IMG/VR virus record: IMGVR_UViG_3300034072_000696
Coordinates: 1-53,802 of that record
Length of the DNA: 53,802 nucleotides
Origin: a virus
Lineage: Duplodnaviria; Caudoviricetes
Strand: one strand, 5' to 3'
The notes beneath the pieces are model-generated. The model made no database searches and was not told the origin of the DNA. It saw only the letters and a program-made list of their open reading frames with translations. The position numbers and the translations under genes are program-made. Shown piece by piece: positions 3,014-48,852 of the stretch; position 1 is the stretch's first letter; each line of letters begins with the position of its first letter.

Positions 3014-3545
3014 TTCGTTCCACAGCTCCAGCTTCCACCCGTCGTCATGGCGGGGTGTGGAAGGTGAGGTCCGGCCTGTTGTCCAGCCGCTCAACGGCGG
3101 CGTTCGGTTTACCCCGATCCGTGACGCCGAGCCGAGGCTGCGGATTAACGCGCGCGTCGCGCACACCGCGGGGGGCCGGCTACCGGCATCGGCGGGGGCG
3201 ACGGCTACTGTCTTCGCGGCAGGGTATGTGCGCGTTGTCAGCGGGGCCGCTGTGTGCGCCGGCGGCGCCCGACCGGCATTCAAGACGAAGCCGACGGCGA
3301 GCCGTGTATGTTGCATCGCACCAACGGCGAATGCCCGAGCTGTTTCCCGCCTCGCCGCGGCGACGAAAATGCTCCGCCAGGATGTCCGGCCAGCAGGGTA
3401 CGCGTGCCCGACGTTCCGCACGTACGACACATATTCGGCGTCAGCAGTAGCGCGCCCGCGCGGCGTTTTGAACCCCAGCGACGAAGAATTGTTGGCCCTT
3501 GTATACGCAGCGCGAAAAAAGCGCTTGACACACGCTTACAGGTAA
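3000..3545 (+). CDS. Hypothetical protein (GTG start)
   Basis: Overlaps end of upstream gene; N-terminal FHxSSFHxSSFH repeat and C-terminal DEELLAL typical of small phage structural-region ORFs. Confidence 0.5.
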   Translation: MFHPSSFHSSSFHPSSWRGVEGEVRPVVQPLNGGVRFTPIRDAEPRLRINARVAHTAGGRLPASAGATATVFAAGYVRVVSGAAVCAGGARPAFKTKPTASRVCCIAPTANARAVSRLAAATKMLRQDVRPAGYACPTFRTYDTYSASAVARPRGVLNPSDEELLALVYAARKKRLTHAYR

Positions 3546-12924: not shown

Positions 12925-13833
12925 ATGTGTTCAAGCGGTAGCAGCGCGCCGGCGCCGGACCCTAACATTGGCATCGCCGCGCTCAAGAACTCGAAGATCG
13001 CGGAAGACACGCTGAACTGGTACAAGAAGATGTACGAGGAGAATCTGCCGCGTCAAGCCGCGGCGGATGACATGGCGCAGAAGCTCTACAAGCAGCAGTT
13101 CGACATGGCCGAGCACAACAAGGGCCGCGCCGACCAGCAGTGGAATTACTGGCAGGATACGTACCAGCCGGTCGAACGCCAGACGGTCATGGACTCGATG
13201 GGCTCCCGTTACCTGGGCGACAGCGACCGCGCGCTCCTGGCCTCGATTGTGTCTGGCACGAGCAACTTGGGCGGCGACGCGCTGACGTCCGAAATGGACC
13301 GCATCTCCCGCGCTGCAGCCGAGGGCGCCGCTACTCAGGCGGTTACCAGCTCGCAGGCGCTTGCGAACAGCTCCTACGCACAGCAGGCGCGCAACCTGTC
13401 CCGTTCGGGTATGGACCCGTCGCGCATGGCAGCCGCGGCTGCCGGCCTGGCGCAGAACCAGACCCTCACCAACGTGACCGCCGCGAACATGGCGCGTCAG
13501 GGCGTGTCGGATCAGCAGGCGGGTCTCCGTACCGGCGTGGCGAACTTCGGTCGCAACATGCCGAACACCGCTGGCCAAGCCTTCGGCCTCGCTACCCAAG
13601 CGGGTAACAGCGCGGGCCAGAACGGCATGATCGGCAACAACTACAACGCCGCGCAGAACGCGATGGTCGGGCAGGGCTTTGCGTCCGCCGCCAACACGAA
13701 CGCGTCGGTGATGTCGGGTCTGAATCAGCAATACGGCACCCAGGTCTCCGCGTGGGGCCAGCAGCAACAGGCTCAAAGCCAGGGCGCAGCAGGCTTGGGT
13801 TCGCTGGTTGGTATGGCGGCGATTGCGATTTGA
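12925..13833 (+). CDS. Internal virion (DNA ejection) protein
   Basis: MC..SAPAPDP start, A/G/Q/N-rich, Gly-rich hydrophobic C-terminus. Confidence 0.7.
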   Translation: MCSSGSSAPAPDPNIGIAALKNSKIAEDTLNWYKKMYEENLPRQAAADDMAQKLYKQQFDMAEHNKGRADQQWNYWQDTYQPVERQTVMDSMGSRYLGDSDRALLASIVSGTSNLGGDALTSEMDRISRAAAEGAATQAVTSSQALANSSYAQQARNLSRSGMDPSRMAAAAAGLAQNQTLTNVTAANMARQGVSDQQAGLRTGVANFGRNMPNTAGQAFGLATQAGNSAGQNGMIGNNYNAAQNAMVGQGFASAANTNASVMSGLNQQYGTQVSAWGQQQQAQSQGAAGLGSLVGMAAIAI

Positions 13834-15215
13834 GCGCGAACCGTCTCCACTCTCTTGGCGTTGAGCTTCTGGAGTCCCACGTTGTCGGTGGTACTGCGGA
13901 GGCTCAAGCCGCGTACTTTCTCAGCAAGCTCGACTTGCCGGAGGGGGCGCACGTCGTCGACATGGGTTGCGGCTCCGGCCGCTTCGCAAAGGTTCTGAGC
14001 GAGTTGTCCCCTCTGGAGCGGTGCTCCTTGGTCGCCCCCGATGCCGGGGAAATCCTGGTTGACGGGGCGGTTTTTTCCAAGGTGCAGGCCGACTATCACG
14101 AGACGGGGCTGCCGAGCGGCACGGCTGACGCTGTGCTGTTCATGTACTCGTTCCTGTACTCGCGCCCGAACAAGGCGCTGGCCGAGGCCCGCCGTCTACT
14201 CAAGCCGAACGGCAAGCTGCTCCTGTGGGAGCCGCTGGACGCGCCGAAGGCGTACGAGGAGCTGTTCCCGGGCAACCGCGCCATGACGCGCGAATTCGTC
14301 CTGGCCGAACTCAAGGCCGCCGGCTTCGTTGTTCGCGAGGTGGAGACGCCCGAGGCTGATAGCACTGCGGCGCAGAAGGCGCTCGCCGAACTCAGCGAAA
14401 GCTGGGTATTCGACGCGACGTTTGCCAAGGCGACCCCCACGCTGATCGTGGCGGAACGCGGCGCCCGTGACGACGCCGTCAACCACTCCTGGATCGCACA
14501 AGCGTTCGCGCGCCACCCGCGTGTCGCGTTCGAGTTTTCTGGCGGCCGTGACTCTCTGGCTGCTCTGTATCTGTTGCGCCCGTACTGGGGCCGCATGACG
14601 GTCTATCACACGGACACCGGCGACCAGTTCCCGGAGACCCAAGAGGTCGTGAGCCGAGTCGAGGCCATCGTGCCGCGCTTCGTGCGCATCAAGGGCCGCC
14701 TGCAGGAGTCGATCGAGCAGTTCGGGCTCCCGACGGACCTGTCGCCCGCAGGGGCGAACTCGGGTATGGGGGCGTGGCACTACGGCTCCCCGCGCCTGCA
14801 GGATCGCTACGACTGCTGCTACCGCAGCCTCATGGCGCCGATGCACGAGCGGGTCACTGCGGACGGCTGCACCCTGGTCATTCGCGGCCAGCGTGACACG
14901 GACTACAAGCTGCCGCCGATGCGGTCGGGTGAGTCGTTCGGCGTCGAGGTGCTGTACCCGATTGAGCGGTGGAACGACGACGACGTGCTGGGGTATCTGC
15001 AGGAGGTGGGGGTAGCTCCGGCCCGCTTCTACGAGCACGGCCTGGAGACGTCGCCGGAATGTATGCGCTGCAGCGCGTGGTGGGATGACAAGCGCGCGGC
15101 CTACATGAAGCAGTTCCACCCGGAAGCACACAAGGAATACGTGGCGCGACTCGTCTTCGTACGGAACGCCATCATGCCGCACCTGGCGGCGCTGGACACT
15201 GAGCTGGAGGGCTGA
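13830..15215 (+). CDS. Fusion of class I SAM methyltransferase and PAPS-reductase-family (PP-loop, Cys-rich) domain
   Basis: VVDMGCGSG; FSGGRDS, DTGDQFPET, DCC, RGQR..D, YPI..W, CMRC; TTG start overlapping upstream TGA. Confidence 0.85.
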   Translation: MSANRLHSLGVELLESHVVGGTAEAQAAYFLSKLDLPEGAHVVDMGCGSGRFAKVLSELSPLERCSLVAPDAGEILVDGAVFSKVQADYHETGLPSGTADAVLFMYSFLYSRPNKALAEARRLLKPNGKLLLWEPLDAPKAYEELFPGNRAMTREFVLAELKAAGFVVREVETPEADSTAAQKALAELSESWVFDATFAKATPTLIVAERGARDDAVNHSWIAQAFARHPRVAFEFSGGRDSLAALYLLRPYWGRMTVYHTDTGDQFPETQEVVSRVEAIVPRFVRIKGRLQESIEQFGLPTDLSPAGANSGMGAWHYGSPRLQDRYDCCYRSLMAPMHERVTADGCTLVIRGQRDTDYKLPPMRSGESFGVEVLYPIERWNDDDVLGYLQEVGVAPARFYEHGLETSPECMRCSAWWDDKRAAYMKQFHPEAHKEYVARLVFVRNAIMPHLAALDTELEG

Positions 15216-16678: not shown

Positions 16679-16687
16679 GGATCATTG

Positions 16688-19600
16688 ATGCGCTCTCGGC
16701 TCGACCAGCTACTCGCCAACGATAACGGCCAGGATCAACTGAACGATCCTGGCTTTGTCACCTCCGTCAAGCGCGGTATCGGCTCCACGATCACCGGCTT
16801 TGGGGAAATGGCGGGCGATATTACCGGCGACTACAACAACTCCATCCGCCAGTACGGCGAGGAGATGGTAGCGCGTAACCCCGCGGGGATTGTTTCGACG
16901 CAGGACATCGGCAGCAGCCCGTGGTTGGCCGTGAAGGAAGCCGCGGGTAGCTCCGTGGCGCCGCTACTCTCCGTCGGTCTGACGCGCGGTGCGGGCCGTG
17001 TCGCCGGCGGCCTTGGTGCGGGTCGTACCGCTGCTGCGCTCCGTAACCCTATCACTGCCGCCGAAGTCGCGGGTCTGCCGTCGTACGGCGAAATCGGTGA
17101 AGCACAGCGCGAGACCGGGACCGAGAACTGGGCATTGAAGCAGGGCGGCGCGTTGGCCGTCGGCGCGATCGAAAACCTCGGCGGTGTGCAGCGTGCACTG
17201 GGCTGGGGTGGCGGACGCGGTATGACGGAAGCCGCAGCACGAGAATTCATGGCCTCGCCGGGCCGTTCGTTCGGTAAGGCGTGGTTGAAGATGGGCGCCC
17301 AGGAAGCGGGCGAAGAAATGCTCCAGACGCCCATTGAGCGGGGTGCTGGCGGTCGTGATGCGTTCGACCAAGAGGGTATGGACCAGATCGGCTTCGGTGG
17401 TGCTATGGGCGCCATCGGCGGCTTGGCATTGGGTCCGCTGGGCGCTGCCGTGCAACGCAGCGGCGCACGTAACCACATCGAGCGAATTGACGCCGCACGC
17501 GCCACGCTGGCCGATTACAACGCGCCCTATGAGGATCGGCTGGACGCCGGCCAGTTCCTGACCCGTGTCATGGCGAACGACGTCAACGACGCGCAGGCGC
17601 AAGCCTGGTGGGGCGGCTACAACGAGGCGCTTGTTCAAGACCGCGACGTGCACGCCGCGAATGCTGCGATGGAAGCACGCCGCGCAGCCGTCGAGCAAGA
17701 GCTGCAGGCGGTCCACGACGAGCTGTTGAAGGCTGACTTCAATGCTTACCTGCGGGAGCAGTTGGGTGACCGTGGTGCATCCACGGACCTCCTCGACGCG
17801 ATCAACAAGACCACCGGCGTAACCAACATGCGGGAGCGCCTGCCGCTGTTCTACGGGCGGGACATCCCCGAGGTGGGCGGCGTGCAACCGACCAACCGTA
17901 TGACCCAGCCGGGCCAGGAGCGCGCCCAGTGGTGGCAGCAGCAGGGCGAAGGCGATCTGACCTCCCGCGGCCCGGGCTACGGCGACTGGTGGAACACGCA
18001 AGACACCACCCCGTATGAGGCGCGCGCAGCCGCGCAGCCGGGGGCGACCCGCGATCTGTTCTCGAACGAATGGCGAGCACCGGCGCAACCGGAAGCCCAA
18101 GTGGAGCAGGACGCCACGATGCGCCCGAACCGACGCCAAATGGCGCTGGACCTCGACGCCGAACGCCCGCCGATCTACATGGGCGCCACGGGGGCGGGCT
18201 TCTCCCAGCTCCCGATCACCGACGACATCCGCCCGGCTGCGAACATGGAATCCAGCCCGATGGTCGCCGCAGCTCGTGCGTTCCGCCAGCAGGGCGGCTC
18301 CAAGCGCGTATGGGACAACTTCCAGGCTCGTGTCGCTGATCTGGCGACCAACCCGGTCGAATTGGCTCGTGCGCTGCAGGCGCGTGAAGCCACAGCAGGT
18401 CAGGGCAAGGACACGTCTCACCCGAAGGCATGGCAAGCCGCCATCGCCGCGCTCAACATCCAAGGAGATCAGAATGGCAAAGGCATCGTTCAAGGCGCAG
18501 TCGGTACGAACCAGGACGGATACGCGAACTCCCAACAGCGTGACCAATCCCAAGACCTCGCCCAACGGGGTGGGAACCAAGTACAAGGGGATGCTGGAAA
18601 CCGATACGGCCAAGAAGTTGCGCGGCAAGAAGTAGATGCGCGGGCTCTAGTCGCCGCGGTCAAGGGCGACAGCAAAGAGGCGCAGCTTCTCCGTAAGGTG
18701 CTTGGCGTCGACGCGAACCTGGAAGTCGTGGGTAACCCGATGCCGTACAGTGAAGCGGGGCGCCTGTTTGGTTACGGCGGTGGCGGCAAGGACTCGCGCC
18801 AAGGTGCAGCAGCGGCACTGAACCGCATCCTCAAGCCCGTGCGCAAGCAAGGCGAGCCGCTGGCCAAGGTGCTCGACCGCATCGTCGCGCGCCTGCACGA
18901 CGTGGATATTACGACCGGCAGTTTCTCGCAGCTTGCGGGTGAGGGCGGTATCAGCGTACATCAGCGCGGGGAGACGGACAAGCGCACCCTGGCCGGCTGG
19001 GGTTCCAGCGTCGACTCCGAAACGCTTGCAGCGCAAAAAAGCGAGGAACCGGATGCGGACCTGCGCCATGTGGAGCGCACCACGGGCGCGATGCTCGAAG
19101 ACCGCGTAGTTGAGTATGAGGGCGATGGCGGCCAGGTCGAAGTTGAAGTCATCGACCAAGGCACCGCTGAGTTCAACGATGGCGCGGGACAATTCGACGA
19201 AGACTCGCACCTAAGCCGCCCCGCCGCGGAAGAAGACGCCACGGAGATGGCTGACGTCGAACTCGACGCCCGCTGGGTGGATTACAATGGCAACCCGATC
19301 AAGCAGGTCGACATCGACGACGCGCTCGAAGACTGGGAAGACCGCGACGGCACCACGCTACCGAAGCAGTTCCATCTGCAGTGGACGAAGGCGTGGGTGA
19401 ATTATCACAGCGGTGCGTTTGACGACCGCGTATTCCAGGAGATTTACCGTGGACTCACAACGCAAGTCGACACCGTCAACGCCCGAGAAAGCGGCGATTC
19501 GTCAGCAGCACCGGCAGGAGAGCCGGCGCGCGGCAACGAAGCTGCCGGAGCATATCAAGGGCTCCCCGAAGCTGGAGAAGATGTGGGCAGCGGGCGAGAC

Positions 19601-22600
19601 AATCCCGAATTGGCGGGAGGCGCCCGAGCTGTACCCGCACTTGAGCGAAGCGCAGATGGCAGCGCTGGACGCGGGATCGAGAGCGTACGCGGACGAGCTT
19701 CTAGCGGAAATCAGGACCGCGAAGTAACCGCCGAAACCATCAACGACCCGGCCTTGGTCGAGTCGTGGTGGAACAAGGGCGCCCGCGCAATGGGCGTGAC
19801 TTCGTGGGAAGGTCTGACTGAGGGCCAACGCCGCGTCCTCCTGAACACGGAGACGAAGCAAGACTTCGACGAGACCGCGCAGGAAATCGCCGACGACCTG
19901 AATGACGCCGGCCCCGGCCAGGACGCTATGTACTCCGAGGGCGCCGCTGGCGGCACCACGGTGGAAGCGGTCAACGCGGCCATCAAGCGTCTTTTCACCT
20001 CTCCGGCCCGCGCGGGTCTGGTGACGGTCTACGCCACGCAGGATGAGGCCAAGACCGCCGGCGCACTGAGCCAAGACTATAAGGGTCGTGCCCTGGGTTT
20101 CACCCACAAGGGCAAGGTCGGCCTCATCGCTGAGAACATCCGACCGGGTCAGGAGCTGGCCGTGCTGCTGCACGAAGTCGGCGTCCACCTCGGGATGAAG
20201 AAGCTCGTTGGCGCGGCCAATATGGACGCCATGATCGCGCAGATCGACGCATGGGCCGCGCGCAACGACAACAGCATCGAAACCCGCGTCGCCAAGCAGG
20301 CAGTGGAGCGCGCAGCGGCATCGTCGTCCAAGAACAAGACCGAGGAAAAGCTGGCCTACATGATCGAGGGCCTGGTCGCCGAGGGCGTGACCCCGACGCA
20401 GATGAAGTCCGCTGCCGGCCGGTTCCTGAATCGCGTGTGGAGCGCGGTTCGTGTTGCACTGCAGCAATTCGGCATCGGCGCCAAGTACGACGGGCAGCAG
20501 CTCGTGGACCTAGCCTATGGTGCTGCGAACATCGACGCCGCTGCGGTCGACACTGACAGCAGCTACTCTGAGTCGCCGGTCTTCAACGCCTGGTCGCAGA
20601 TGATGACCCCGGACAAGGCCAAGGGTGTCCTCGGCAATGCGTGGGACAAGGTCAAGACCATCGACCTCGGTTGGCGCACGCTGCGCGAGCTGTCCGAGCA
20701 TTCCAAGATGCCTTGGGTGGAGAAGTACGCCGATGCCCTGCAGGCCATGCAACGCGGCTCGAAGCAAATCCTGAACCGCGCCTCGACCGTGGATTACGAG
20801 TGGGCGCAACTGGACAAGGCCACCGCTGACCGGCTCTCGCAGGTCATGCGCGACGCCACGCGTGCGATGTTCGACCCCGCAGTCGACAAGCCGATGGACG
20901 AGGCGCAATCTGCCTTGGCCAAGCGGTACGAGGGTCTGTCCGACAAGGCCAAGGCGGTCTACACCAAGGCTCGGGACTTCTACGCCGACAACCGCCAGCA
21001 GCGCCAGCAGATCATGGAGAAGATCGCGGCGGAGACGAGTGATGCTGCAGTGCAGCAAGTTGTGCGCGAGTACAAGAACTTGAGGGGGCCGTACTTCCCC
21101 CTGATGCGCTTCGGCGAGTTCTACACCGTCGCCATGTCCAAGGAACTGGCCGCCCTCACTGCGAAGCAGGAGCAGGGGATGACCAGCGCCGCCGAGGACA
21201 AGCGGATCGCCGCGTTGCGTAAAGACCCGGCGCACTACATCACACGCACCCACGACAAGCTCTCGGAGGCCAAGGCCGACATGGCGGCCCTGCAGAAGCG
21301 CTTCCCCGAGGTGCGGTACAACCGTGTGGCCGATCGCCGCAGCAGCATTACCGCCTCGATGCCGGAACTGGAGCGCGTCACTGCGTCTCTGACCGCTGGC
21401 ATGCAGAAGGATGGCGCTGCCGCTATCCGCGACGCGATGGCTCAGATTTATTTCGACATGCTGCCGGAGCACCACGCGTTGAAGCGGGAGATGAAGCGCG
21501 AAGGCGTCCACGGCGAAAGCTCGGACATGCGCCGCGTGTTCTCTGCATCAGCCATCCAGCAGGCCCACTACATCAGCCGCCTGGAGCATGCCAAGGGTGT
21601 GTCCGAGGCACTGGAGGAAGGCCGCCGCGAAAGCACGAACTCCGACGCGACCGCGGTCTACAACGAGATCGTGAAACGGTCCAACACCGCGATGAAGCAG
21701 GATACGCCCAACGGGCTCGTGTCGGCCCTGGCATCGGCCAGCTACTTCGCGCACTTGGGTCTGTCGCCCGCGTTCATCCTGACCAACATGACTCAGGTGC
21801 CGGTGGTGGCGTACCCGTGGTTGGCTGCGCGCTACGGCGCCGGTGCCGCGTCCCGTGCGATCGCGACGGGCTACGCGGACGCCACGAAGATCATCAAGTC
21901 CACGTACAAGGGCAAGAACTGGCGTGCGGAACTCGACTGGAGCCAAGCCGGCCTTTCGTCCGACGAAGGCGCCATGCTGACTCACCTGCTGAACCAGAGC
22001 CTGCTGGACGTGACGATCGAGCACGATCTGACGGCTGTGGCCGAGTCCTCGCACGGCAAGATGAACGAGTACATGAAGATGGCGAACATGCCGGTCCACG
22101 TGACTGAGCTGATGAACCGTTCGACCGTGGCGCTTGCGTCGTATCGCCTGGCCCGTGGGAAGGGTCAAGCCCACGATGCAGCCGTCAAGACCGCAGTCAA
22201 GGCTGTGGCGGACACCCAGCTCGACTACACGGGCCTCAACGCCGCGCGCCACATGCAGACCCTGTTCGGTAGCCGGGATATGGCCCGTCTCGCGTTCCAG
22301 TTCCGCAAGTTCCAGCACGGCATGCTGCGCATGATCGGTCGCTCTATCCACGACGCCATCGGCGCCAACGGTGTGAGCGCAGAAGATCGTGCCGTCGCGC
22401 GCCGCCAGCTCGCGTACCTGGGTGCGACCACTTGGGCGTTCGCCGGTGTCCTGGGTATGCCTCTTGCCGGCACGGTGGCCTGGGTACTCGAAGCGCTGAT
22501 CCCGGAAGACGATGACGAGCCGCTGGACCTCGAAGTGGCGCTTCGCAACGTCATGACCGATATGCTGGGCAAGGAAGGCGCGGCGGTCGTCACCAACGGC

Positions 22601-23281
22601 CTCGTGGGGTCTCTGCTGGGCATCGACCTGACCAGCCGCGTCGGTATGGGCGACATCGCCTCCCCGACCCCATTTGCGCGTTCGGGGCGTACCGCGCAGG
22701 AAACCACGGCCAACTACTACGCCGCGGCGTTCGGTGGTGCTCCACTGGGGACCGTTGCCGACACGCTGGACGGCATCACCAAGATTGCCTCCGGCGACAT
22801 CGCCAAGGGGTTGGAAAAGGCGCTGCCGCTCAAGCTGGCGCAGAATCTGGTCCGCTCGGAGCGGTTCAGCCGCGAGGGTATGAGCGACAGCAAGGGCAAC
22901 ACGATCCTGTCGGAAGACAAGTTCGACTTCATGGACCTGGCGATGCGTGCGGCGGGTTTCCAGACCAAGAAGGAGTCCGACTACTACGCGGCCAACTCGG
23001 CGGTCATGAACCGCAAGGAAGCGGCCAGTGAGGTTCGGACGAACCTGCTGCGGGCCTACACCAAGGCCAAGCTGGCGGGGGAACCCACGGCAGAAGTCGA
23101 CGCCAAAATCCGCGAGTTCAACCAACGCCACCCGGAGAAGGGGGTCCGCATTGACGCGAGCACGAAGCTCAAGTCTTTGGAAGCCCGCCGCAAGATGGCG
23201 AAGGAACGGAACGCGTCGGGGCTACGGGCCGATAAGGGCAACAAGCCCTATCTGGATCAGGCCCGCTTCGTCGGGGAGTGA
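16688..23281 (+). CDS. Giant internal virion / polyvalent protein (zincin-like HExxxH and PLxRFG domain)
   Basis: 2197 aa; EAGEE..Q N-terminal motif, LLHEVGVH...EE, YFPLMRFG, C-terminal hydrophobic helices. Confidence 0.8.
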   Translation: MRSRLDQLLANDNGQDQLNDPGFVTSVKRGIGSTITGFGEMAGDITGDYNNSIRQYGEEMVARNPAGIVSTQDIGSSPWLAVKEAAGSSVAPLLSVGLTRGAGRVAGGLGAGRTAAALRNPITAAEVAGLPSYGEIGEAQRETGTENWALKQGGALAVGAIENLGGVQRALGWGGGRGMTEAAAREFMASPGRSFGKAWLKMGAQEAGEEMLQTPIERGAGGRDAFDQEGMDQIGFGGAMGAIGGLALGPLGAAVQRSGARNHIERIDAARATLADYNAPYEDRLDAGQFLTRVMANDVNDAQAQAWWGGYNEALVQDRDVHAANAAMEARRAAVEQELQAVHDELLKADFNAYLREQLGDRGASTDLLDAINKTTGVTNMRERLPLFYGRDIPEVGGVQPTNRMTQPGQERAQWWQQQGEGDLTSRGPGYGDWWNTQDTTPYEARAAAQPGATRDLFSNEWRAPAQPEAQVEQDATMRPNRRQMALDLDAERPPIYMGATGAGFSQLPITDDIRPAANMESSPMVAAARAFRQQGGSKRVWDNFQARVADLATNPVELARALQAREATAGQGKDTSHPKAWQAAIAALNIQGDQNGKGIVQGAVGTNQDGYANSQQRDQSQDLAQRGGNQVQGDAGNRYGQEVARQEVDARALVAAVKGDSKEAQLLRKVLGVDANLEVVGNPMPYSEAGRLFGYGGGGKDSRQGAAAALNRILKPVRKQGEPLAKVLDRIVARLHDVDITTGSFSQLAGEGGISVHQRGETDKRTLAGWGSSVDSETLAAQKSEEPDADLRHVERTTGAMLEDRVVEYEGDGGQVEVEVIDQGTAEFNDGAGQFDEDSHLSRPAAEEDATEMADVELDARWVDYNGNPIKQVDIDDALEDWEDRDGTTLPKQFHLQWTKAWVNYHSGAFDDRVFQEIYRGLTTQVDTVNARESGDSSAAPAGEPARGNEAAGAYQGLPEAGEDVGSGRDNPELAGGARAVPALERSADGSAGRGIESVRGRASSGNQDREVTAETINDPALVESWWNKGARAMGVTSWEGLTEGQRRVLLNTETKQDFDETAQEIADDLNDAGPGQDAMYSEGAAGGTTVEAVNAAIKRLFTSPARAGLVTVYATQDEAKTAGALSQDYKGRALGFTHKGKVGLIAENIRPGQELAVLLHEVGVHLGMKKLVGAANMDAMIAQIDAWAARNDNSIETRVAKQAVERAAASSSKNKTEEKLAYMIEGLVAEGVTPTQMKSAAGRFLNRVWSAVRVALQQFGIGAKYDGQQLVDLAYGAANIDAAAVDTDSSYSESPVFNAWSQMMTPDKAKGVLGNAWDKVKTIDLGWRTLRELSEHSKMPWVEKYADALQAMQRGSKQILNRASTVDYEWAQLDKATADRLSQVMRDATRAMFDPAVDKPMDEAQSALAKRYEGLSDKAKAVYTKARDFYADNRQQRQQIMEKIAAETSDAAVQQVVREYKNLRGPYFPLMRFGEFYTVAMSKELAALTAKQEQGMTSAAEDKRIAALRKDPAHYITRTHDKLSEAKADMAALQKRFPEVRYNRVADRRSSITASMPELERVTASLTAGMQKDGAAAIRDAMAQIYFDMLPEHHALKREMKREGVHGESSDMRRVFSASAIQQAHYISRLEHAKGVSEALEEGRRESTNSDATAVYNEIVKRSNTAMKQDTPNGLVSALASASYFAHLGLSPAFILTNMTQVPVVAYPWLAARYGAGAASRAIATGYADATKIIKSTYKGKNWRAELDWSQAGLSSDEGAMLTHLLNQSLLDVTIEHDLTAVAESSHGKMNEYMKMANMPVHVTELMNRSTVALASYRLARGKGQAHDAAVKTAVKAVADTQLDYTGLNAARHMQTLFGSRDMARLAFQFRKFQHGMLRMIGRSIHDAIGANGVSAEDRAVARRQLAYLGATTWAFAGVLGMPLAGTVAWVLEALIPEDDDEPLDLEVALRNVMTDMLGKEGAAVVTNGLVGSLLGIDLTSRVGMGDIASPTPFARSGRTAQETTANYYAAAFGGAPLGTVADTLDGITKIASGDIAKGLEKALPLKLAQNLVRSERFSREGMSDSKGNTILSEDKFDFMDLAMRAAGFQTKKESDYYAANSAVMNRKEAASEVRTNLLRAYTKAKLAGEPTAEVDAKIREFNQRHPEKGVRIDASTKLKSLEARRKMAKERNASGLRADKGNKPYLDQARFVGE
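18474..18635 (+). CDS. Putative nested gene (+1 frame), 53-aa basic peptide
   Basis: AAGGAG RBS 18462-18467, ATG, GC-rich third positions in this frame. Confidence 0.5.
   Translation: MAKASFKAQSVRTRTDTRTPNSVTNPKTSPNGVGTKYKGMLETDTAKKLRGKK
19449..19727 (+). CDS. Putative nested gene (+1 frame), 92 aa
   Basis: AGGAG RBS 19437-19441, GTG, GC-rich third positions, protein-like composition. Confidence 0.55.
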   Translation: MDSQRKSTPSTPEKAAIRQQHRQESRRAATKLPEHIKGSPKLEKMWAAGETIPNWREAPELYPHLSEAQMAALDAGSRAYADELLAEIRTAK

Positions 23282-38217: not shown

Positions 38218-38980
38218 GATGTGCGTACTCCTCTGTAAGAATGTCGCGCAATGCGGTCAGGCCGCCGTTGCAGTAGCGCAGGTTGGCTTTCGCGGCCTTG
38301 ATGGTCTCCGTGACGCTGTGGTCGATGAACTTCGTCATCGAGATCACGATGTCGGCGTGGCCGGCGGCACTCGCCAAACGGTTGCGGTGCTCCGTGGTCT
38401 GGTAGAAGGACAAGTCCAGCTCGCGGTGGAACTCTTGCTGGATCATGCCGGCCTGCTGCGGGAGTAGGCCGACGATCAGGACTCGGCGCTTACGCGGCGC
38501 CGGCGCAGTTGGCCCAGCGGCGATACCTTTTTCGGGAGCAGGGATCACCACGGACTTCACGGCCTTCGCGATAGCGTCGTCGACTTGAGCCTGCAGGGTG
38601 GCGTGCAACTGCGCGGTGACTTGCGTCGTAACCTGCGAGACCAGCGCGGAGACGAACTCCTGGATCGTCCGCTCGATCGTGAGTGGTGCGGGCGCTGGAT
38701 GCGCCACGGGGAGCACCGCTGCAGGGGTTGAAACGCTCTGTGTCGCGTCGTAGCCGAACGGGTAGAGTTTGTAAGGTGCTCGCCCTTTAGCCCCGCCCGG
38801 GGCCGACTGGACCCGTTGGATGAGGCGTTTGTTTACCAGGATGCGCACCGACGCGTCGACGGAACCCGGCGTGGTGTCGATGACTTCGGATGCGTCAGCG
38901 ACGGTCGACCCGGGGTTCTTCTGCACGAACTCCAGGATGGCCTGCTGGAGCCAGCCTTTTTCTTTCTTCATGCCAGCCAT
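38210..38980 (-). CDS. N-terminal winged HTH plus C-terminal DUF2325-like Rossmannoid domain
   Basis: AILEFVQKNPGST..DA; RVLIVG, ADIVI.MTKFIDHS, NGGLT.L. Confidence 0.6.
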   Translation of the reverse strand: MAGMKKEKGWLQQAILEFVQKNPGSTVADASEVIDTTPGSVDASVRILVNKRLIQRVQSAPGGAKGRAPYKLYPFGYDATQSVSTPAAVLPVAHPAPAPLTIERTIQEFVSALVSQVTTQVTAQLHATLQAQVDDAIAKAVKSVVIPAPEKGIAAGPTAPAPRKRRVLIVGLLPQQAGMIQQEFHRELDLSFYQTTEHRNRLASAAGHADIVISMTKFIDHSVTETIKAAKANLRYCNGGLTALRDILTEEYAHHG

Positions 38981-39885
38981 CCTTTCAGCGTGTCGAGGTC
39001 GGTCTCGAATCCCGCAGCGTTCTTGTGGCCACCGCCACCGAATGCCTTGGCGATTGCCGAGACGTCATAGTCGCCATTGCTGCGCAGGGAGCACTTGACC
39101 TTGCCATCTGCGCCGACGTACCAGAGCAGACCGTAGGTGCCGCTCTTGTTGGCGAGGACGTGGCCGGTTTCGCTGATGTGGTTCTGCGTGTTGAGGGCGA
39201 GGCCGATGTAAAGGTGCCCATCGTCATCGTCACCGAGCATACGCACCGTTTTGATCCCGCACGTCATCGCCTGCTTGGCTTGCTGCTCGACCATGATCTC
39301 TTGAGCACGGAGGATGGCTGCGCCTTCGTCGAACAGTGAATAGATGCCGGCATCCATCATTTCTGCCCACTGTTTAAAACTCCACGGCAGTCGGGCCTGT
39401 AACGCAGCGTGCATCTCCTTGCTCCCTTTCAGCTTGAACTGCCAGCGGTCACGGTCGTCGATGTGCTGGATCAGCATCGGGACTTCGGTGCCGGGGTGGA
39501 AGTATTCCCACGCCAGCAGGGCGCCTGATTTGTTGTTGTCGAGCGTAACGAATACGTTGCTGGAGTGGGCGTCGAATCGTGCGGTCGGTGTGTATTCGAT
39601 ATTTATCGACTCGAAAGCTGTCTTGTGGTGGTCGAGCCAGATAGTCTCGGCAGCGGCATCCATCACGTACTCCATCACAGCCTTGGGGAAACTGAAGTCA
39701 AGAATGTAGACTTCGCGACCGTGTACGATGCTGCCGAGTTCCATATCTTCGGGGACTAACTTACGCCAGTCGCCGCCGTGGTTCATCGGCAGATACTCGG
39801 CGTCGTCGCCGAACTTCATCCATGCTGCGAATGCTGCGCCAAAGCCGTCGGTGCAGTTGGCGTGGTAGATAACGAGAGGTTTCAT
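38968..39885 (-). CDS. DHH/DHHA1 phosphoesterase
   Basis: YH..C.DG, LDFS, LDHHKT, DDRD, SLRS, FGGGGHKNAAGF. Confidence 0.92.
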   Translation of the reverse strand: MKPLVIYHANCTDGFGAAFAAWMKFGDDAEYLPMNHGGDWRKLVPEDMELGSIVHGREVYILDFSFPKAVMEYVMDAAAETIWLDHHKTAFESINIEYTPTARFDAHSSNVFVTLDNNKSGALLAWEYFHPGTEVPMLIQHIDDRDRWQFKLKGSKEMHAALQARLPWSFKQWAEMMDAGIYSLFDEGAAILRAQEIMVEQQAKQAMTCGIKTVRMLGDDDDGHLYIGLALNTQNHISETGHVLANKSGTYGLLWYVGADGKVKCSLRSNGDYDVSAIAKAFGGGGHKNAAGFETDLDTLKGWLA

Positions 39886-41435: not shown

Positions 41436-42659
41436 TCACGCGCCCTTGACGCAAAGGACTTGCTTGAGGACGTGCACCACGTCGATCAGGTCACGCTGGT
41501 TGTCCATGACGACGTCGATGTCCTTGTATGCGCCGGGGATTTCATCCAGCACCGCATCATCCTTCCGGCACTCGACGCCGGCGGTTTGTGCGGACAGGTC
41601 TGCCAGCGTGAACTTCTTGCGCGCCGCGGACCGGGACATGCTGCGCCCCGCGCCATGCGAGCACGAGCAGTACGATTCGAGATTCCCCTTGCCGCGTACG
41701 ATGTAGCTGCGCTGCCCCATCGACCCAGGGATGATGCCCAGGTCGCCTTCACGGGCACGTATGGCCCCCTTGCGTGTGACCCACAGGTTCCGACCGAAGT
41801 GGTTCTCACGCTCGACGTAGTTGTGGTGGCAGTTGATCGCCTCTTGTGTGATGATGAACTCGACCGGGATGTGGCGGCGCAGGGCGGCGATGACCGCCTC
41901 CATCATGACCTTGCGGTTCTCCAGCGCGTAGTTCTGCGCCCAATCGACGGCGGCCATGTAGTCGTCGAAGTCGTCGGTGTCCTCCGGCAGATACGCGAGG
42001 TCGCCGTCTGGCAGGTGGATGAAATACTGCTCCATGCGGCGCTTGGCCTTCTCGATGAAGTAGCTGCCGATCATGTTCCCGATGCCACGCGAACCCGAGT
42101 GCAGCATGATCCACACATCGTCGTTCTCGTCGAGGCAAAGCTCGATGAAGTGGTTGCCGGAGCCGAGCGTACCTAACTGACCGCCAGCCTTGCTCAGAAA
42201 CCGCTCCCACGACTTATCCGCCCCAACCCCAAAGACAGGAGCAAGAGCGTCAGCAATGCCCGAAAAGTCAGGCATGCGCTCCAGGTTGCGCTCGACATCT
42301 ACTTCGCGCTGATGGCGACCACCAGCGCCCAGCGGCACATCACGCTCGATCTGGTGGCGTATAGCGGTCAGCGAGTCAGGCAGGTCGCTGGCCTTGAGTG
42401 ACAGGCGCACGGCGTTCATGCCGCAGCCAATGTCCACGCCTACCGCTGCCGGAATGATCGCCTTGTCGGTCGCTATGACGCTGCCAATGGTCGATCCCTT
42501 GCCAGCATGAACGTCGGGCATCAGCGCAACCCCGTTGCCTGCAATGAACGGGAGGCGCGCCAGGTTCTTGGCCTGCGTCAGCGCCTCGTCCTCGATGTCA
42601 TTCGTCCAGATTTTGATCGGGCGCGCGCCCGGCTCGTTGATTACTTGCTTGAAAGTCAT
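41436..42659 (-). CDS. rtcB: RtcB RNA ligase
   Basis: MPDVHAGKG, GVDIGCG, GTLGSGNHFIE, HSGSRG, HHNY, RKGA, PGSMG, SHGAGR, DE.P.AYK. Confidence 0.96.
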   Translation of the reverse strand: MTFKQVINEPGARPIKIWTNDIEDEALTQAKNLARLPFIAGNGVALMPDVHAGKGSTIGSVIATDKAIIPAAVGVDIGCGMNAVRLSLKASDLPDSLTAIRHQIERDVPLGAGGRHQREVDVERNLERMPDFSGIADALAPVFGVGADKSWERFLSKAGGQLGTLGSGNHFIELCLDENDDVWIMLHSGSRGIGNMIGSYFIEKAKRRMEQYFIHLPDGDLAYLPEDTDDFDDYMAAVDWAQNYALENRKVMMEAVIAALRRHIPVEFIITQEAINCHHNYVERENHFGRNLWVTRKGAIRAREGDLGIIPGSMGQRSYIVRGKGNLESYCSCSHGAGRSMSRSAARKKFTLADLSAQTAGVECRKDDAVLDEIPGAYKDIDVVMDNQRDLIDVVHVLKQVLCVKGA

Positions 42660-43124: not shown

Positions 43125-43931
43125 TCACTTGAGGCTGATGAACGGAACGGCGCCGCCGGCTTGCGTCACAGGTAGCTTGCCGTCCCACTTCTCGATGGCC
43201 TTCAAGCGGACGTAGTCATCGCCGCCCTGGACAGAGATCGCTTGCGCGCTGATGCGGATGGCGTCCGCGTTACCCTGGGCCTCGACGCGCTTGCGGTCTG
43301 CCTCAGCCTTGGCGAGTTCGACTTCTTTCTGCTTCGTCATGATCTGGTAGTCACGCTTGGCGTTCTCCTTGATGCTCGCCTCCAGTGCCGGATCGGTCAC
43401 GAGGTTGCGGATGTTGACCGTGCGGACGAAGAACCAGCCCTTGCCAGCCTCAGTGTCGAGACTGGCCTGCAGAATCTTCGCGACCTCGGCCGCGATCTCG
43501 ACGCGCTTGGTGTGGATCACGTCGGACTTGAAATCGTCGACCGCGTTGAAGATGGCCTCGCGCGCCTGGCGGGTCACATAGTTGAATCCAATGCGCGCAC
43601 CATCTTCGGTCGGCTCGTATGAAACATCGCCCGGCCATCGCGTCATGATGGCGACAGCCTTGCTGGGGTCGATCTGCACATAGATGTCCACGTCCAGGTC
43701 TGCCAGGGTGATCTTGTCCGCGGTCTGCGGGCGCAGGTCCGACAGTTGGATCGGCAGTTCCTTAGTGGAGACCTCGGTCACACGCTTGAACAGGGTGAAG
43801 TACACGCCCGGCTGCATGGTCTCAGCGGAGACCTGGCCCATCGTGGACTCGACGCCCACGTTGCCGGTGTCGATCTGCGAACAGCCCGTCAGGGCAACTG
43901 CGATTGCTGCAGTGATGAGAAACTTCTTCAA
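43125..43931 (-). CDS. SPFH/Band 7/prohibitin-family lipoprotein
   Basis: LTGC lipobox, IDTGNVGV, AEA..AQG.ADA coil, IEKWDGKLP. Confidence 0.9.
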   Translation of the reverse strand: MKKFLITAAIAVALTGCSQIDTGNVGVESTMGQVSAETMQPGVYFTLFKRVTEVSTKELPIQLSDLRPQTADKITLADLDVDIYVQIDPSKAVAIMTRWPGDVSYEPTEDGARIGFNYVTRQAREAIFNAVDDFKSDVIHTKRVEIAAEVAKILQASLDTEAGKGWFFVRTVNIRNLVTDPALEASIKENAKRDYQIMTKQKEVELAKAEADRKRVEAQGNADAIRISAQAISVQGGDDYVRLKAIEKWDGKLPVTQAGGAVPFISLK

Positions 43932-45420: not shown

Positions 45421-46548
45421 CTACTGGTAGTTGTGGTAGTAATCGAATTCTTCGAGCGCGGTGACCGCCGTCATGGCGGTATCGCGGATCAATTCGACAA
45501 GCTCGTCTGCGCTCATCTTCAACACCATCGCCCGGAGTTCGGCCGTGGTCATGGCGTCGAGTTCGTAGACACTGGTGCCGGCGCTGGCTTGCGGCTTCTT
45601 GGGGGTGTAGCTGCGGCTCCACGAGCCGTACCCGCTCCAGTTACCCCACGAATCGGCGGGATCAACTTCGCCCGGCTTGCGGGTCTGCGGTAGGCCCGGG
45701 TCGGTCTTGAACGCGGCGACGCATGCGTTCTTCAAGCGGATGGCGTACTCAACGTCGAGGTCTTCGGCGCCACGGTGCTCGTTCATGTAGCCGCACGACA
45801 CGTTGGTGCACTCGCCGATCAGGTCGGTGTATTCCGCCGTGTCGGTGTACACGCCGCCGTCGTCCGGCTCCAGCTTCCCGCAGCCGTTGTCGTTCAGCAG
45901 CTTGGCCAGGGCCGTGGCGAACTCATCCGAGCAGCAGCGCCCGAGGGATTGGTGCGTGATGACCGAGCAGTCGCTTTTACGGTCGAACGCAATGGCCGCG
46001 GTCAGCCCCTTGAAGTCGTCGGGGAAGTTGTCCGTCACGAACTTGGAGCCGATGCCGCCGCACTCCTCGCCGCGGTGGAACATATAGACGCCCGGCACGC
46101 CGGCCTCGATCATGTTGAGCATGATCCATACACCCACGCCGTCGTCCGCGCCCAGGCATTCGTCGTCCTGCTTGTAGGCCACGAGCATGCCCGGGTCGAA
46201 CAGCACCTCCTGCTTCACGCGCTCGGGGTCTTTGCGGTGCACGGTGTCGACGTGACACGAGAACAGGATTTTCCCGTCGCCGACATCGACGCGGTATGCC
46301 ATGTCCTCCAGTTCGCCGGTCGCGTCGTCGATGCTGGCGTAATACACCGTCGGGTCCATCGGGCGGATGTACTTGTCGACGAACTGCGCCTCGCCGAGTG
46401 AGTGGTGCCCCCGCCGCATCGTCAGGATCGACAGGAGGCGATCCACGTTCTCCGCCACGAGATCAGGCGGCAAGGCAGAAGCGCTCGTCGCGGGCTTGGG
46501 TGTTGGCGAGGGTAGCGTGGGCGGCACGAGCGATAGTTGCTTGGTCAT
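45421..46548 (-). CDS. M28/M20-clan zinc peptidase/amidohydrolase
   Basis: CHVDTVH, LGADD, GEECGGIGS, AFDR, YTDT, GY.NEH; AAGGA RBS before ATG 46548. Confidence 0.88.
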   Translation of the reverse strand: MTKQLSLVPPTLPSPTPKPATSASALPPDLVAENVDRLLSILTMRRGHHSLGEAQFVDKYIRPMDPTVYYASIDDATGELEDMAYRVDVGDGKILFSCHVDTVHRKDPERVKQEVLFDPGMLVAYKQDDECLGADDGVGVWIMLNMIEAGVPGVYMFHRGEECGGIGSKFVTDNFPDDFKGLTAAIAFDRKSDCSVITHQSLGRCCSDEFATALAKLLNDNGCGKLEPDDGGVYTDTAEYTDLIGECTNVSCGYMNEHRGAEDLDVEYAIRLKNACVAAFKTDPGLPQTRKPGEVDPADSWGNWSGYGSWSRSYTPKKPQASAGTSVYELDAMTTAELRAMVLKMSADELVELIRDTAMTAVTALEEFDYYHNYQ

Positions 46549-48796
46549 GGTCTTGGTCCTTGTCGAAATAGTGGGGGTGATACTCGTGGTTGGTCCGCGC
46601 TGCGGTCGAAGTACACAAACGCATTTCGCGCAGTCGTTCCTTTTCGTCGGCGACTTCTTCGTCCTCGGGGTACTCGTCCTCGCAGTCCTCGTGGATGGTG
46701 ATCTCCTCGCCCTCATGGATCACCGTGACGGTGTCGCTCTTATGTGCGTAGTCGTTGCCATCCAGGTCGGGCCGGTCGAGTTGGACCGCCAGGTCGGGGT
46801 GGATCAACCCCCGGCTCGTGTCGACCAGGTCGTCGAGGTCGTAGTATTTGCCGGACTCGCTACACATATGGACGTTGAAGTGGTGCTCGTCGCCTTCGCG
46901 GTAGCTCTCGCCATCCGTCTCGCAGTAGATGACGTTGTCGTCGTGTATCCACGCCGTCGCCTGCCCATAGTTTCGGTTGTAGACGTTGGCGCGGGTGTAG
47001 TCGATACTCAGGCAGTGGTTGCACACGCAACGGTCTTCATATACACCGACGTAGTTCACTTCATCCTCGGAGTAGATGTCACCGTCGCAGTCCTCGCATA
47101 CCGCGATACGGGTGTCTAGCTCCACGTACCCCGAGGCGCTCGACGTGTAATCCGCGCAGCCCGTGGTGGCGACCATGTAGTCATCGCCCTCGGTCCAGTC
47201 GACTCCGTCGGTGTCTCCGTCCAGATACGGCACGATCAGCATGTCGCCGTTATAGACCCGGGCCGCGAGCTTCACGCCATCGAGGGTTTCATGGCATTCG
47301 CGATACCCCGATTTACGCAGCAGGAGCGCGAGGCGGCCGTCGCCATAGACACGGACGTAGGTCTTTTTGTCCTCATTCACGATGGACCGCGCATACACAC
47401 GCTCCTCGTCGCCGATATAGGCCAAGCGGAGGCCGTTACCTGCATACGCGTAAGCACGTACAGGGTGGTTAATGCCGTGCAGCTCGGAGTCGATGTGGCG
47501 GCTCGATGGGTGGTTGTACATCATGCACGAGCTGAAACCGTGGGCGTGCTCATACACCCATTCCCATCCGTCGGGATCGGTGTTCTCTTTGAACTGGAGC
47601 TGGTTGCACGCCTCCTCCTTCTTCGCTTCGATGTTGAAGGTCTCGACGAAATCCTTGATGGCCTTCTCGTCATACACATCCGAATAGAAGCGGGTCAGGT
47701 ATCGCCCGGGCTTGATCTTGGTGAACTTACCATTGAGCAGCGCGTCGATGCTGCGGGCATAGGCCAACATCGTGGGGTCTTCGGTGCTGACGTGCATCGC
47801 ATGGAAGAACGTCTCGACCTTGCCCCAGCCGATCGCGAGCGGGAAGTTCCGCCAGTCGCCGCAAGCGACCTTCGCCCCGAACGCGTCGAGCGCCACGCGC
47901 ACATGCTCGGGCACAACCTGCTCGAACACGCTGTACCCCGGGCGCACCAAATGCCCGAAGACCGGGTCATCCCCCAGCAGCTCCAGCGCGGCGACGATGT
48001 CTTTCTTGGCCACCGTGATCGCCTTGGCTACCCGGCGGCCGTGTGAGTGGTGCATCTGAATGTGCTGGAGCGCGTCCCTGCGATGGTTGTGCTCATACAA
48101 GGCGCTGCGTTTGGACGACGGCAGGTTGCCCAGTCGCATGTTCTTCTTAATGGCGGCGCGCAGCGCGGAGCGTTTCTGATCCTGATAGACCTTGGTCCAG
48201 TACGCGTTATGGCGCTCGTACTGCTCCAGGGACACCGGATCGGCCCGCACCGCGTCGGTGATGGAAATGAGGTCCGGCTTGTAGACGGTTTCCAGCGCAC
48301 CCAGAAGATTAGATGTCATGGTCGTAGCTCCAGCAGAAGGGTCGTTTTTCGGTGATGCATTCGAGTGCGGCTCGATACCAGGCGAAGTACCGCCGCGCAG
48401 TGGGTCGCGGAGTCGTTCGCGCCACATGCGAAGCAGGTTGGACGCGCTCATCGGGTCGGGGTCGTTCCCTGGGGGCGGGTCCGGGGGTGCCGGCCGGACG
48501 ATCCGCGCTGGCTGTTGCCGCCACGGATACAGGTCGTCGCCTTGCATGGCGCGGTCGGTCGCTGTCATCAGCCTCGGGGGGACAGGAGAAGTCATGCATG
48601 TCTGCACCTCCTGGTCCGCGCCCATATCGCCGGCGAGCAGATACTGAACACGAAACTGCGCATCCCGCGTGACTGCCTCGCGGTACTGCTGCATGCGGTA
48701 GTCCCGAATTTCGTCGATGATCGCGAGGTCCAGCTCGTTACCCCGGAGCGACGCGGCGGAACGGATGAACTGCGGGGGCGGTGGGTGTATTGGCAT
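46463..48796 (-). CDS. Large SCM-motif protein with CxxC repeats and ssrA-like C-terminus (alternative start 48319)
   Basis: KPGRYL, SSCM, ARS.V, RVYG, PYLD, CxxC..CxxC, ends ARDERFCLAA. Confidence 0.75.
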   Translation of the reverse strand: MPIHPPPPQFIRSAASLRGNELDLAIIDEIRDYRMQQYREAVTRDAQFRVQYLLAGDMGADQEVQTCMTSPVPPRLMTATDRAMQGDDLYPWRQQPARIVRPAPPDPPPGNDPDPMSASNLLRMWRERLRDPLRGGTSPGIEPHSNASPKNDPSAGATTMTSNLLGALETVYKPDLISITDAVRADPVSLEQYERHNAYWTKVYQDQKRSALRAAIKKNMRLGNLPSSKRSALYEHNHRRDALQHIQMHHSHGRRVAKAITVAKKDIVAALELLGDDPVFGHLVRPGYSVFEQVVPEHVRVALDAFGAKVACGDWRNFPLAIGWGKVETFFHAMHVSTEDPTMLAYARSIDALLNGKFTKIKPGRYLTRFYSDVYDEKAIKDFVETFNIEAKKEEACNQLQFKENTDPDGWEWVYEHAHGFSSCMMYNHPSSRHIDSELHGINHPVRAYAYAGNGLRLAYIGDEERVYARSIVNEDKKTYVRVYGDGRLALLLRKSGYRECHETLDGVKLAARVYNGDMLIVPYLDGDTDGVDWTEGDDYMVATTGCADYTSSASGYVELDTRIAVCEDCDGDIYSEDEVNYVGVYEDRCVCNHCLSIDYTRANVYNRNYGQATAWIHDDNVIYCETDGESYREGDEHHFNVHMCSESGKYYDLDDLVDTSRGLIHPDLAVQLDRPDLDGNDYAHKSDTVTVIHEGEEITIHEDCEDEYPEDEEVADEKERLREMRLCTSTAARTNHEYHPHYFDKDQDHDQATIARAAHATLANTQARDERFCLAA

Positions 48797-48807
48797 GTCA
48801 GATACTC

Positions 48808-48852
48808 GCTAACGTGTAAGCATATTATACACATAAGAGCGTACGTGTAAGC
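48808..48852 (-). promoter_or_regulatory. Leftward -10 box flanked by two operators
   Basis: GCTAACGTGTAAGC 48808-48821, ATTATA 48824-48829, GCGTACGTGTAAGC 48839-48852. Confidence 0.7.

Follow-up and report, generated by a model that had tools for sequence, protein, structure and literature searches.

Does a phage protein that ends in Leu-Ala-Ala carry, within its own gene, a tag for degradation by the proteases of its host, or do these residues reflect chance and the crowded junction at which the gene stops? The question is raised by P0001, a 777 aa protein of an uncultured virus, whose C-terminus reads ...TQARDERFCLAA and is followed by TGA at 46465-46463. The window analysed here is the entire contig of that virus, 53,802 bases in length, with an estimated completeness of 91% and a G+C content of 60-64%. 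The initial annotation had described the end of the protein, QARDERFCLAA-stop, as a genetically encoded mimic of the ssrA tag, and this sequence makes up exactly the last 11 codons and the stop (Table 1). The free C-terminal Ala-Ala is encoded by GCC GCC TGA at 46471-46463, and the residue at position -3 (counted, like all such positions below, from the C-terminus) is Leu, as in ssrA.

A widespread phage protein and its peptidase neighbour

P0001 matches the profiles phrog_6980 (E 7e-20) and phrog_13313 (E 4.7e-14) over its core, both of them PHROGs of phage proteins without known function, and 1941 cluster representatives (50% identity clusters) match it at E<=1e-3; judged by these matches the open reading frame is a real gene. 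By tblastn the family is found in 287 phage records, among them 230 of Klebsiella, 34 of Vibrio and 10 of Escherichia, and gp10 of the Klebsiella phage KP34 is a homologue of P0001 (tblastn E 3e-10; some 26% identical, with the similarity confined to the core). Pfam holds no family for P0001, nor one at E<=1 over 16 members, a PDB sequence search with P0001 gave nothing better than E 0.006, Foldseek with its model stayed at E >= 0.1 throughout, and an atlas search returned unnamed phage clusters only, plus a weak PcfJ lead at 0.79.

The AlphaFold (AF2) model of P0001 has a mean pLDDT of 88 and its core, comprising residues 300-710, is well folded. The core includes a domain that carries the invariant SCM motif, for which two VIA-align searches found mostly GNAT-superfamily matches, all of them weak (Z <= 5.2; the best row has an rmsd of 3.4 Å over 91 residues), the fold neighbours including FemA/FemX, ATE1 and MprF. 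In one search all 50 rows listed fall on model residues 95-245, the majority of them on 98-203, and they are for the most part acetyltransferases of the GNAT superfamily, and the other again gave mostly GNAT-type folds together with a few FYVE-type zinc fingers at model residues 358-411. By this resemblance of the predicted fold, the SCM domain is possibly an enzyme akin to acyl- or aminoacyl-transferases. It is followed by two zinc-ribbon-like CxxC pairs whose four cysteines are all invariant in alignments A1 and A2; in alignment A3 (117 sequences) three are invariant and C592 is nearly so.

The window has a podovirus-like gene set that includes an internal virion protein, a DNA polymerase, a primase/helicase, a helicase and an RtcB ligase. 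A DNA-level search against phages gave no near match to it, and the polymerase shares 30-33% identity with those of Pseudomonas and Rhizobium phages, its cultured relatives being only distant. No tRNA or tmRNA genes were found in the window by ARAGORN, nor a tmRNA with the Rfam model RF00023. Besides the RtcB-type RNA ligase (E 1e-153) the window encodes a DHH phosphoesterase, a PAPS-reductase-like protein and an SPFH/Band-7 lipoprotein, and its structural arm holds a 2198-aa ORF. The P0001 ORF lies upstream of the replication genes, like KP34 gene 10 before the primase. An A+T-rich patch within this 62% G+C genome, 28 nt upstream of the ATG, contains a 10/12 match to a sigma-70-like promoter, the only such site found near the ORF where shuffles of the region lead one to expect 2.6.

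The gene that follows P0001 encodes a clan-MH-like di-zinc peptidase and can be read from three starts. The ATG at 46551, which has AAGGA before it, gives an overlap of 89 nt with the P0001 ORF, the TTG at 46473, used in the recorded form P0191 (350 aa, beginning MPPDLV), one of 11 nt, and the in-frame GTG at 46458 none. Whether the tail is encoded in a gene overlap, as the initial annotation had it, therefore depends on the start that the peptidase uses. The residues H74, D76, D110, E136, E137, D164 and H233, which occupy the metal-binding and catalytic positions of clan MH, are invariant in 73 sequences of the peptidase family. The Pfam M28 model scores 16.5 bits against the peptidase, below its cut-off of 21.3, and a PDB sequence search with the peptidase gave no match. 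The peptidase directly follows in 64 of the 71 distinct loci of the family, is absent in five, and in the remaining two the contig ends; the pair also occurs in the phages KP34, ZH5, KpV48, Indie, KF1 and Pasto, and the two genes often overlap or abut, frequently with the ATG over the stop codon. In KP34 they are gp10 and gp11, which count among the core genes of the genus of KP34-like phages (Drulisvirus at present) and which the accessible text of the source gives only as conserved genes (PMC4411677). Like KP34 gp10, which ends in EEAA, P0001 has the same peptidase neighbour and the same place before the primase; unlike P0001, gp10 has Glu rather than Leu at -3, a difference explained below by an embedded ribosome-binding site.

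Table 1. Features of the window, with strand and the basis of each assignment
Feature	Position	Strand	Basis
'SCM' family early protein ORF, P0001, 777 aa, KP34 gp10 homologue	46463..48796	-	profile and tblastn matches
Sigma-70-like promoter match, 10/12, in A+T-rich patch, 28 nt upstream of the ORF ATG	48824..48851	-	consensus match only
SCM-motif domain, residues about 397-500 of P0001	47297..47607	-
Ser423-Cys424-Met425 ('SCM'), invariant motif, in domain with weak GNAT-like fold resemblance	47522..47530	-	alignments and structure search
Two CxxC pairs (C567, C570, C592, C595), zinc-ribbon-like, after the SCM domain	47012..47098	-	alignments
Tail past the well-folded core (residues 711-777), with an acidic stretch, a disordered part and a low-confidence helix	46466..46666	-	AF2 model
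QARDERFCLAA, final 11 codons, and stop TGA (46463-46465)	46463..46498	-	sequence
CTT GCC GCC, Leu-Ala-Ala, last three residues; Ala-Ala is the family's conserved element	46466..46474	-	sequence
Clan-MH-like di-zinc peptidase gene, phrog_4191	45421..46551	-	profile match E 1.5e-65
SPFH/Band-7 lipoprotein	43125..43931	-
RtcB-type RNA ligase	41436..42659	-
DHH phosphoesterase	38968..39885	-
2198-aa ORF of the structural arm	16685..23281	+
PAPS-reductase-like protein	13752..15215	+

The terminal alanines across the family

A single LAA end among some 60 genes is unremarkable on its own; the excess of Ala-Ala ends at the level of the family is very large. Loci of relatives were collected by a search with a 16-sequence alignment, which gave 79 loci, and a search with a single protein, which gave one. 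With duplicates merged 71 distinct loci were scored, or 70 in analyses that required 30 nt downstream; L037, L039, L055 and L077 went unscored as phmmer matched no ORF in them, and L074 runs off its contig. Ala-Ala ends 34 of the 71 distinct loci, against 0.53 expected from the Ala content of each protein, and the excess is present in every G+C band. In the collected family proteins the end is Ala-Ala in 97 and Ala in 128 of 190. Homologues do not lack the end that the initial annotation had noticed in P0001, since among the 150 of 1941 representatives listed 75 end in Ala-Ala and 99 in Ala. Conservation is confined to the extreme C-terminus, with 2.37 bits at position -1 (Ala in 126 of 188), 1.87 bits at -2 (Ala in 108 of 188), 0.90 bits at -3 and between 0.4 and 0.7 bits at all earlier positions.

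The same end is rare in the controls. It occurs in 3 of 120 members of the peptidase family, a larger sample in which the 10 of 70 seen among peptidase ORFs of the loci was not upheld, in 10 of 260 other ORFs of the same loci, in 2 of 57 KP34 genes and, within the window, in 4 of 131 high-GC3 ORFs, where the three besides P0001 are short ORFs opposite longer ones. The second KP34 protein is the product of gene 2 (1564-2139 in the KP34 locus L089, 191 aa), which ends in LKVAA, so that gene 2 and gp10, both from the early region, are the only Ala-Ala enders among the 57 genes.

On a tree of the core domain Ala-Ala is found on 59 of 117 leaves with 28 state changes, as compared with 35-42 in ten of 200 label shuffles, and the trait thus runs through the whole family rather than being inherited within one clade. 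The 28 changes also show an end that is often lost or regained. As half of the family is without it, the end is dispensable in many lineages and not essential to the job of the protein. Among cultured phages six of eight end in Ala-Ala, on E. coli, Klebsiella, Acinetobacter and Bradyrhizobium hosts: E. coli phage ZH5 (QEAA), Klebsiella phages KpV48 and KP34 (both EEAA), Acinetobacter phage Indie (QEAA) and the Bradyrhizobium phages Pasto (AEAA) and BDU-MI-1 (RAAA). The two without it are Vibrio phage KF1 (DEDEE) and a P. putida phage (GELL). A scan of genome contigs found one family locus, in a metagenome-assembled genome, and its protein ends in QQAA. An alternative ending, -Gly-Glu or -Asn-Glu, is present in 8 of 190 proteins (P0088, P0090, P0097, P0099, P0114, P0169, P0172 and P0190); in locus L011 the codons GGG GAA and the stop form an SD-like run right before the ATG of the next gene.

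The tail that bears the alanines is the least ordered part of P0001. In the predicted model it is exposed, with a pLDDT of 41-72 over about the last 67 residues, and the C-terminal end should be accessible and protrude from the core; the final 25 or so residues are predicted as a helix with a pLDDT of about 70 and may perhaps not be fully free. Among 117 relatives the tail extends 6-139 residues past the core and cannot be aligned between homologues. This range of lengths and the sharp fall-off in conservation together imply that the last two residues are what is selected, at whatever length the tail stops. The tails of the family are acidic, Asp and Glu making up 24.5% of the last 40 residues, and Glu is more frequent than any other residue at -3 and from -5 to -12. 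The median acidic fraction of the tail is 0.30 in relatives without Ala-Ala as compared with 0.24 in Ala-Ala enders, and acidity is therefore not tied to the end-tag.

The initial annotation had also seen a match to the E. coli tmRNA tag that extends beyond LAA. The reference for this comparison is the E. coli tag, as found by ARAGORN on E. coli K-12 and as given in the accessible part of PMC7652416, which may not be the tag of the host. In P0001 six of eleven positions (A, D, E, L, A, A) are identical to it, but the AxDE portion is not conserved in the family. Identity to the E. coli tag at four of the nine upstream positions is limited to the window and its closest relative, P0002, and the other 95 Ala-Ala enders match the E. 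coli upstream segment at 1-24% per position. Four of the 97 Ala-Ala tails reach the tag-match score of P0001, representing three lineages if P0001 and P0002 are counted as one, and the chance of such a score is 0.3-1.2% per tail. With the AxDE segment common to P0001 and P0002 only, the suggestion that the tail binds or titrates SspB finds no support.

Ala-Ala and the gene junction

The last codons of the gene overlap or abut the next gene, which could point to an origin at the nucleotide level, Ala-Ala being then a chance occurrence or a by-product of constraints on the junction such as the overlap itself, an embedded ribosome-binding site or a hairpin. This explanation has in its favour that it accounts for certain features of the ends, as described below, and that DERFCLAA is common to the window and P0002, where dual coding with the start of the peptidase may hold the codons of the AxDE region. 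It is nevertheless very improbable, being largely refuted by the 34 Ala-Ala ends where about half of one was expected and by the behaviour of each of the three constraints.

Overlap with the downstream gene is ruled out as the cause. Ala-Ala is equally frequent with and without it (11 of 23 loci with an ATG/stop overlap and 21 of 41 with other junctions), each of the two alanine positions shows all four GCN codons, and all three stop codons are employed (TAA 20, TGA 11, TAG 3). Many of the non-overlap junctions have their own ribosome-binding site past the stop. The constraint imposed by an embedded ribosome-binding site is visible at the neighbouring position instead. Among Ala-Ala loci Glu stands at -3 in 9 of the 11 that have the overlap vs 4 of the 23 that lack it (p=5e-4). 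The last codons contain an SD-like purine motif in 8 of the 11 vs 3 of the 23, and a hydrophobic residue is found at -3 in none of the 11 vs 13 of the 23. The Glu at -3 is thus due to the embedded SD-like motif or overlap, and where this constraint is absent the proteins end mostly in Leu/Val/Ile-Ala-Ala. An embedded ribosome-binding site accounts for the glutamate, but not for the alanines.

A hairpin at the junction fares no better as a general cause, as it is limited to one sub-clade. The mean z of junction folding is -0.38 for 33 Ala-Ala loci and 0.03 for 37 others, with -0.7 for the window, and overall the junctions fold no better than shuffles. Within the sub-clade, which comprises L031, L033, L035, L038, L040, L046 and Pasto (L084, about 3505-3535), the two Ala codons supply the 5' side of a hairpin with a 6-bp G+C stem and the stop codon in its loop, a GNRA-type tetraloop in three loci, and z values against shuffles range from -1.5 to -4.7. 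This hairpin might act on RNA stability or on coupling. Since neither the overlap, nor the SD-like motif, nor the hairpin explains Ala-Ala, the alanines are selected as amino acids.

Candidate readers of the Ala-Ala end

Selection on a free C-terminal Ala-Ala raises the question of what reads it, and for ClpX the requirements have been published. In the accessible sections of PMC7652416 the terminal Ala-Ala-COO- ranks first among the elements of the ssrA degron, mutation of either alanine raises KM, the antepenultimate Leu contributes modestly, and a tag goes unused when it is too short to stick out from the fold, about five residues or more being needed. The classes of ClpX degron include C-motif 1, seen on E. 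coli proteins with gene-encoded ssrA-like ends (PMC12723719, accessible sections). Like the E. coli ssrA tag and C-motif 1, P0001 has a Leu and a free Ala-Ala after an unstructured extension. The order of conservation in its family, with the last Ala above the penultimate Ala and this above position -3, matches the ClpX determinants in the accessible text of both sources (PMC7652416, PMC12723719), and a C-motif-1 degron is therefore the best reading of the end. Unlike the ssrA tag, the tail is encoded in the ORF and not added by tmRNA, of which the window has none, and unlike the E. coli tag its family has not conserved the part that binds SspB.

It is proposed, with about even chances of being right, that P0001 carries a genetically encoded ssrA-like degron of the C-motif 1 type through which ClpXP of the host would limit the lifetime of the protein. 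The free hydrophobic-Ala-Ala-COO- end at the tip of the long, exposed and acidic tail would be bound by host ClpXP, and possibly by other proteases that read ssrA-type ends, which would draw the tail in, unfold the protein and break it down, and the level of the protein would fall once expression of the gene stops. The protein would then be short-lived, which may matter for the infection. Several points count against the degron. Half of the family, KF1 and the P. putida phage included, is without Ala-Ala, the end changes frequently along the tree, and the helix predicted at the tip of the tail may leave it less than fully free. The Glu at -3 in the enterobacterial phages should weaken binding somewhat, as extrapolated from published mutational data, and a conserved free end could be read equally well by another partner. 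A literature search for the P0001/KP34 gp10 family together with Clp proteases found nothing.

The nearest such partner is the phage's own downstream di-zinc exopeptidase, which might dock on the end or trim it, in which case removal of alanines would stabilise or activate the protein. Clan MH enzymes cut from chain ends, and the retained clan MH residues suggest that the peptidase is probably active. The synteny is strong, in 64 of 71 loci and in all six phages named above, with genes that often overlap or abut. Synteny alone is nonetheless weak evidence of binding, and nothing ties the tail to the peptidase specifically: Ala-Ala ends 32 of 64 loci with the peptidase and one of five without it, numbers too small to tell. 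A prediction of the complex between the peptidase (alignment A4) and the C-terminal 70 residues of the protein scored 0.00, which speaks neither for nor against binding. Furthermore the conserved element is exactly that known for ClpX, so that no new partner is needed, and the exopeptidase is an unlikely reader. An extension of the idea is that the protein and the adjacent exopeptidase form a two-gene 'degron-editing' module, in which the peptidase reads or trims the Ala-Ala end or the acidic tail jams ClpXP; we regard such a module as unlikely. A literature search found no phage-encoded control of an ssrA-type end of such a kind.

The composition of the tail suggests two further roles. The first is that of a decoy, which the initial annotation had raised as a titration of ClpXP/SspB. 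The tail would bind ClpXP by its Ala-Ala, but its acidic, low-complexity tract beside a zinc-stabilised fold would resist unfolding, and if the early protein is abundant it would jam the protease and spare other phage proteins. The conservation of Ala-Ala applies here in the same way, and the Asp/Glu-rich tail adjoins the CxxC zinc domain, charged residues being known to give ClpX a poor grip. Against this, there is no sign of high abundance or of resistance to degradation in the protein, the SspB-binding segment is not conserved, and the tails of relatives without Ala-Ala are just as acidic, and a decoy is accordingly judged quite unlikely. The second is unrelated to proteolysis: the tail, acidic and tipped by a small hydrophobic end, would serve in a general way for docking another protein. 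Acidic C-terminal tails act as docking tails in the replication proteins of T7, where they carry an aromatic residue, and the tail of P0001 is acidic and disordered and its gene adjoins replication genes. Only the last two residues are conserved, however, they are alanines rather than a T7-type aromatic residue, and no partner is indicated; the probability of a docking tail is equally low.

The ClpX degron also has a precedent among phages. Mycobacteriophages with integration-dependent immunity carry ssrA-like tags on the integrase and on the viral form of the repressor (accessible text of PMC9635641, describing Broussard et al. 2013). Like these proteins, P0001 is the product of a phage gene that encodes its own ssrA-like tag with host proteolysis setting the level of the protein, which for P0001 is a prediction. 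The mycobacteriophages are temperate phages of Actinobacteria in which integration removes the tag as part of a lysis/lysogeny switch (PMC9635641, same portion), unlike the P0001 family, which consists of large proteins of lytic-type podoviruses and bears the tag family-wide. Gene-encoded ssrA-like tags are thus already known from E. coli proteins and mycobacteriophages, and the P0001 family is probably a further case.

This family is widespread and without known function, and its members include proteins of the KP34-like Klebsiella phages and of E. coli phages that are used in therapy research. The conserved Ala-Ala provides the first testable statement about it, namely that the level of the protein would be set by host proteolysis. 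The link between the Glu at -3 and the ribosome-binding site would mean that a degron and a signal for translational coupling are packed into the same few codons. Should the degron-editing module exist, the phage itself and not only its host would decide when the protein persists, and if the degron is real the family would represent a natural case, in lytic phages, of a gene that encodes its own ssrA-type tag.
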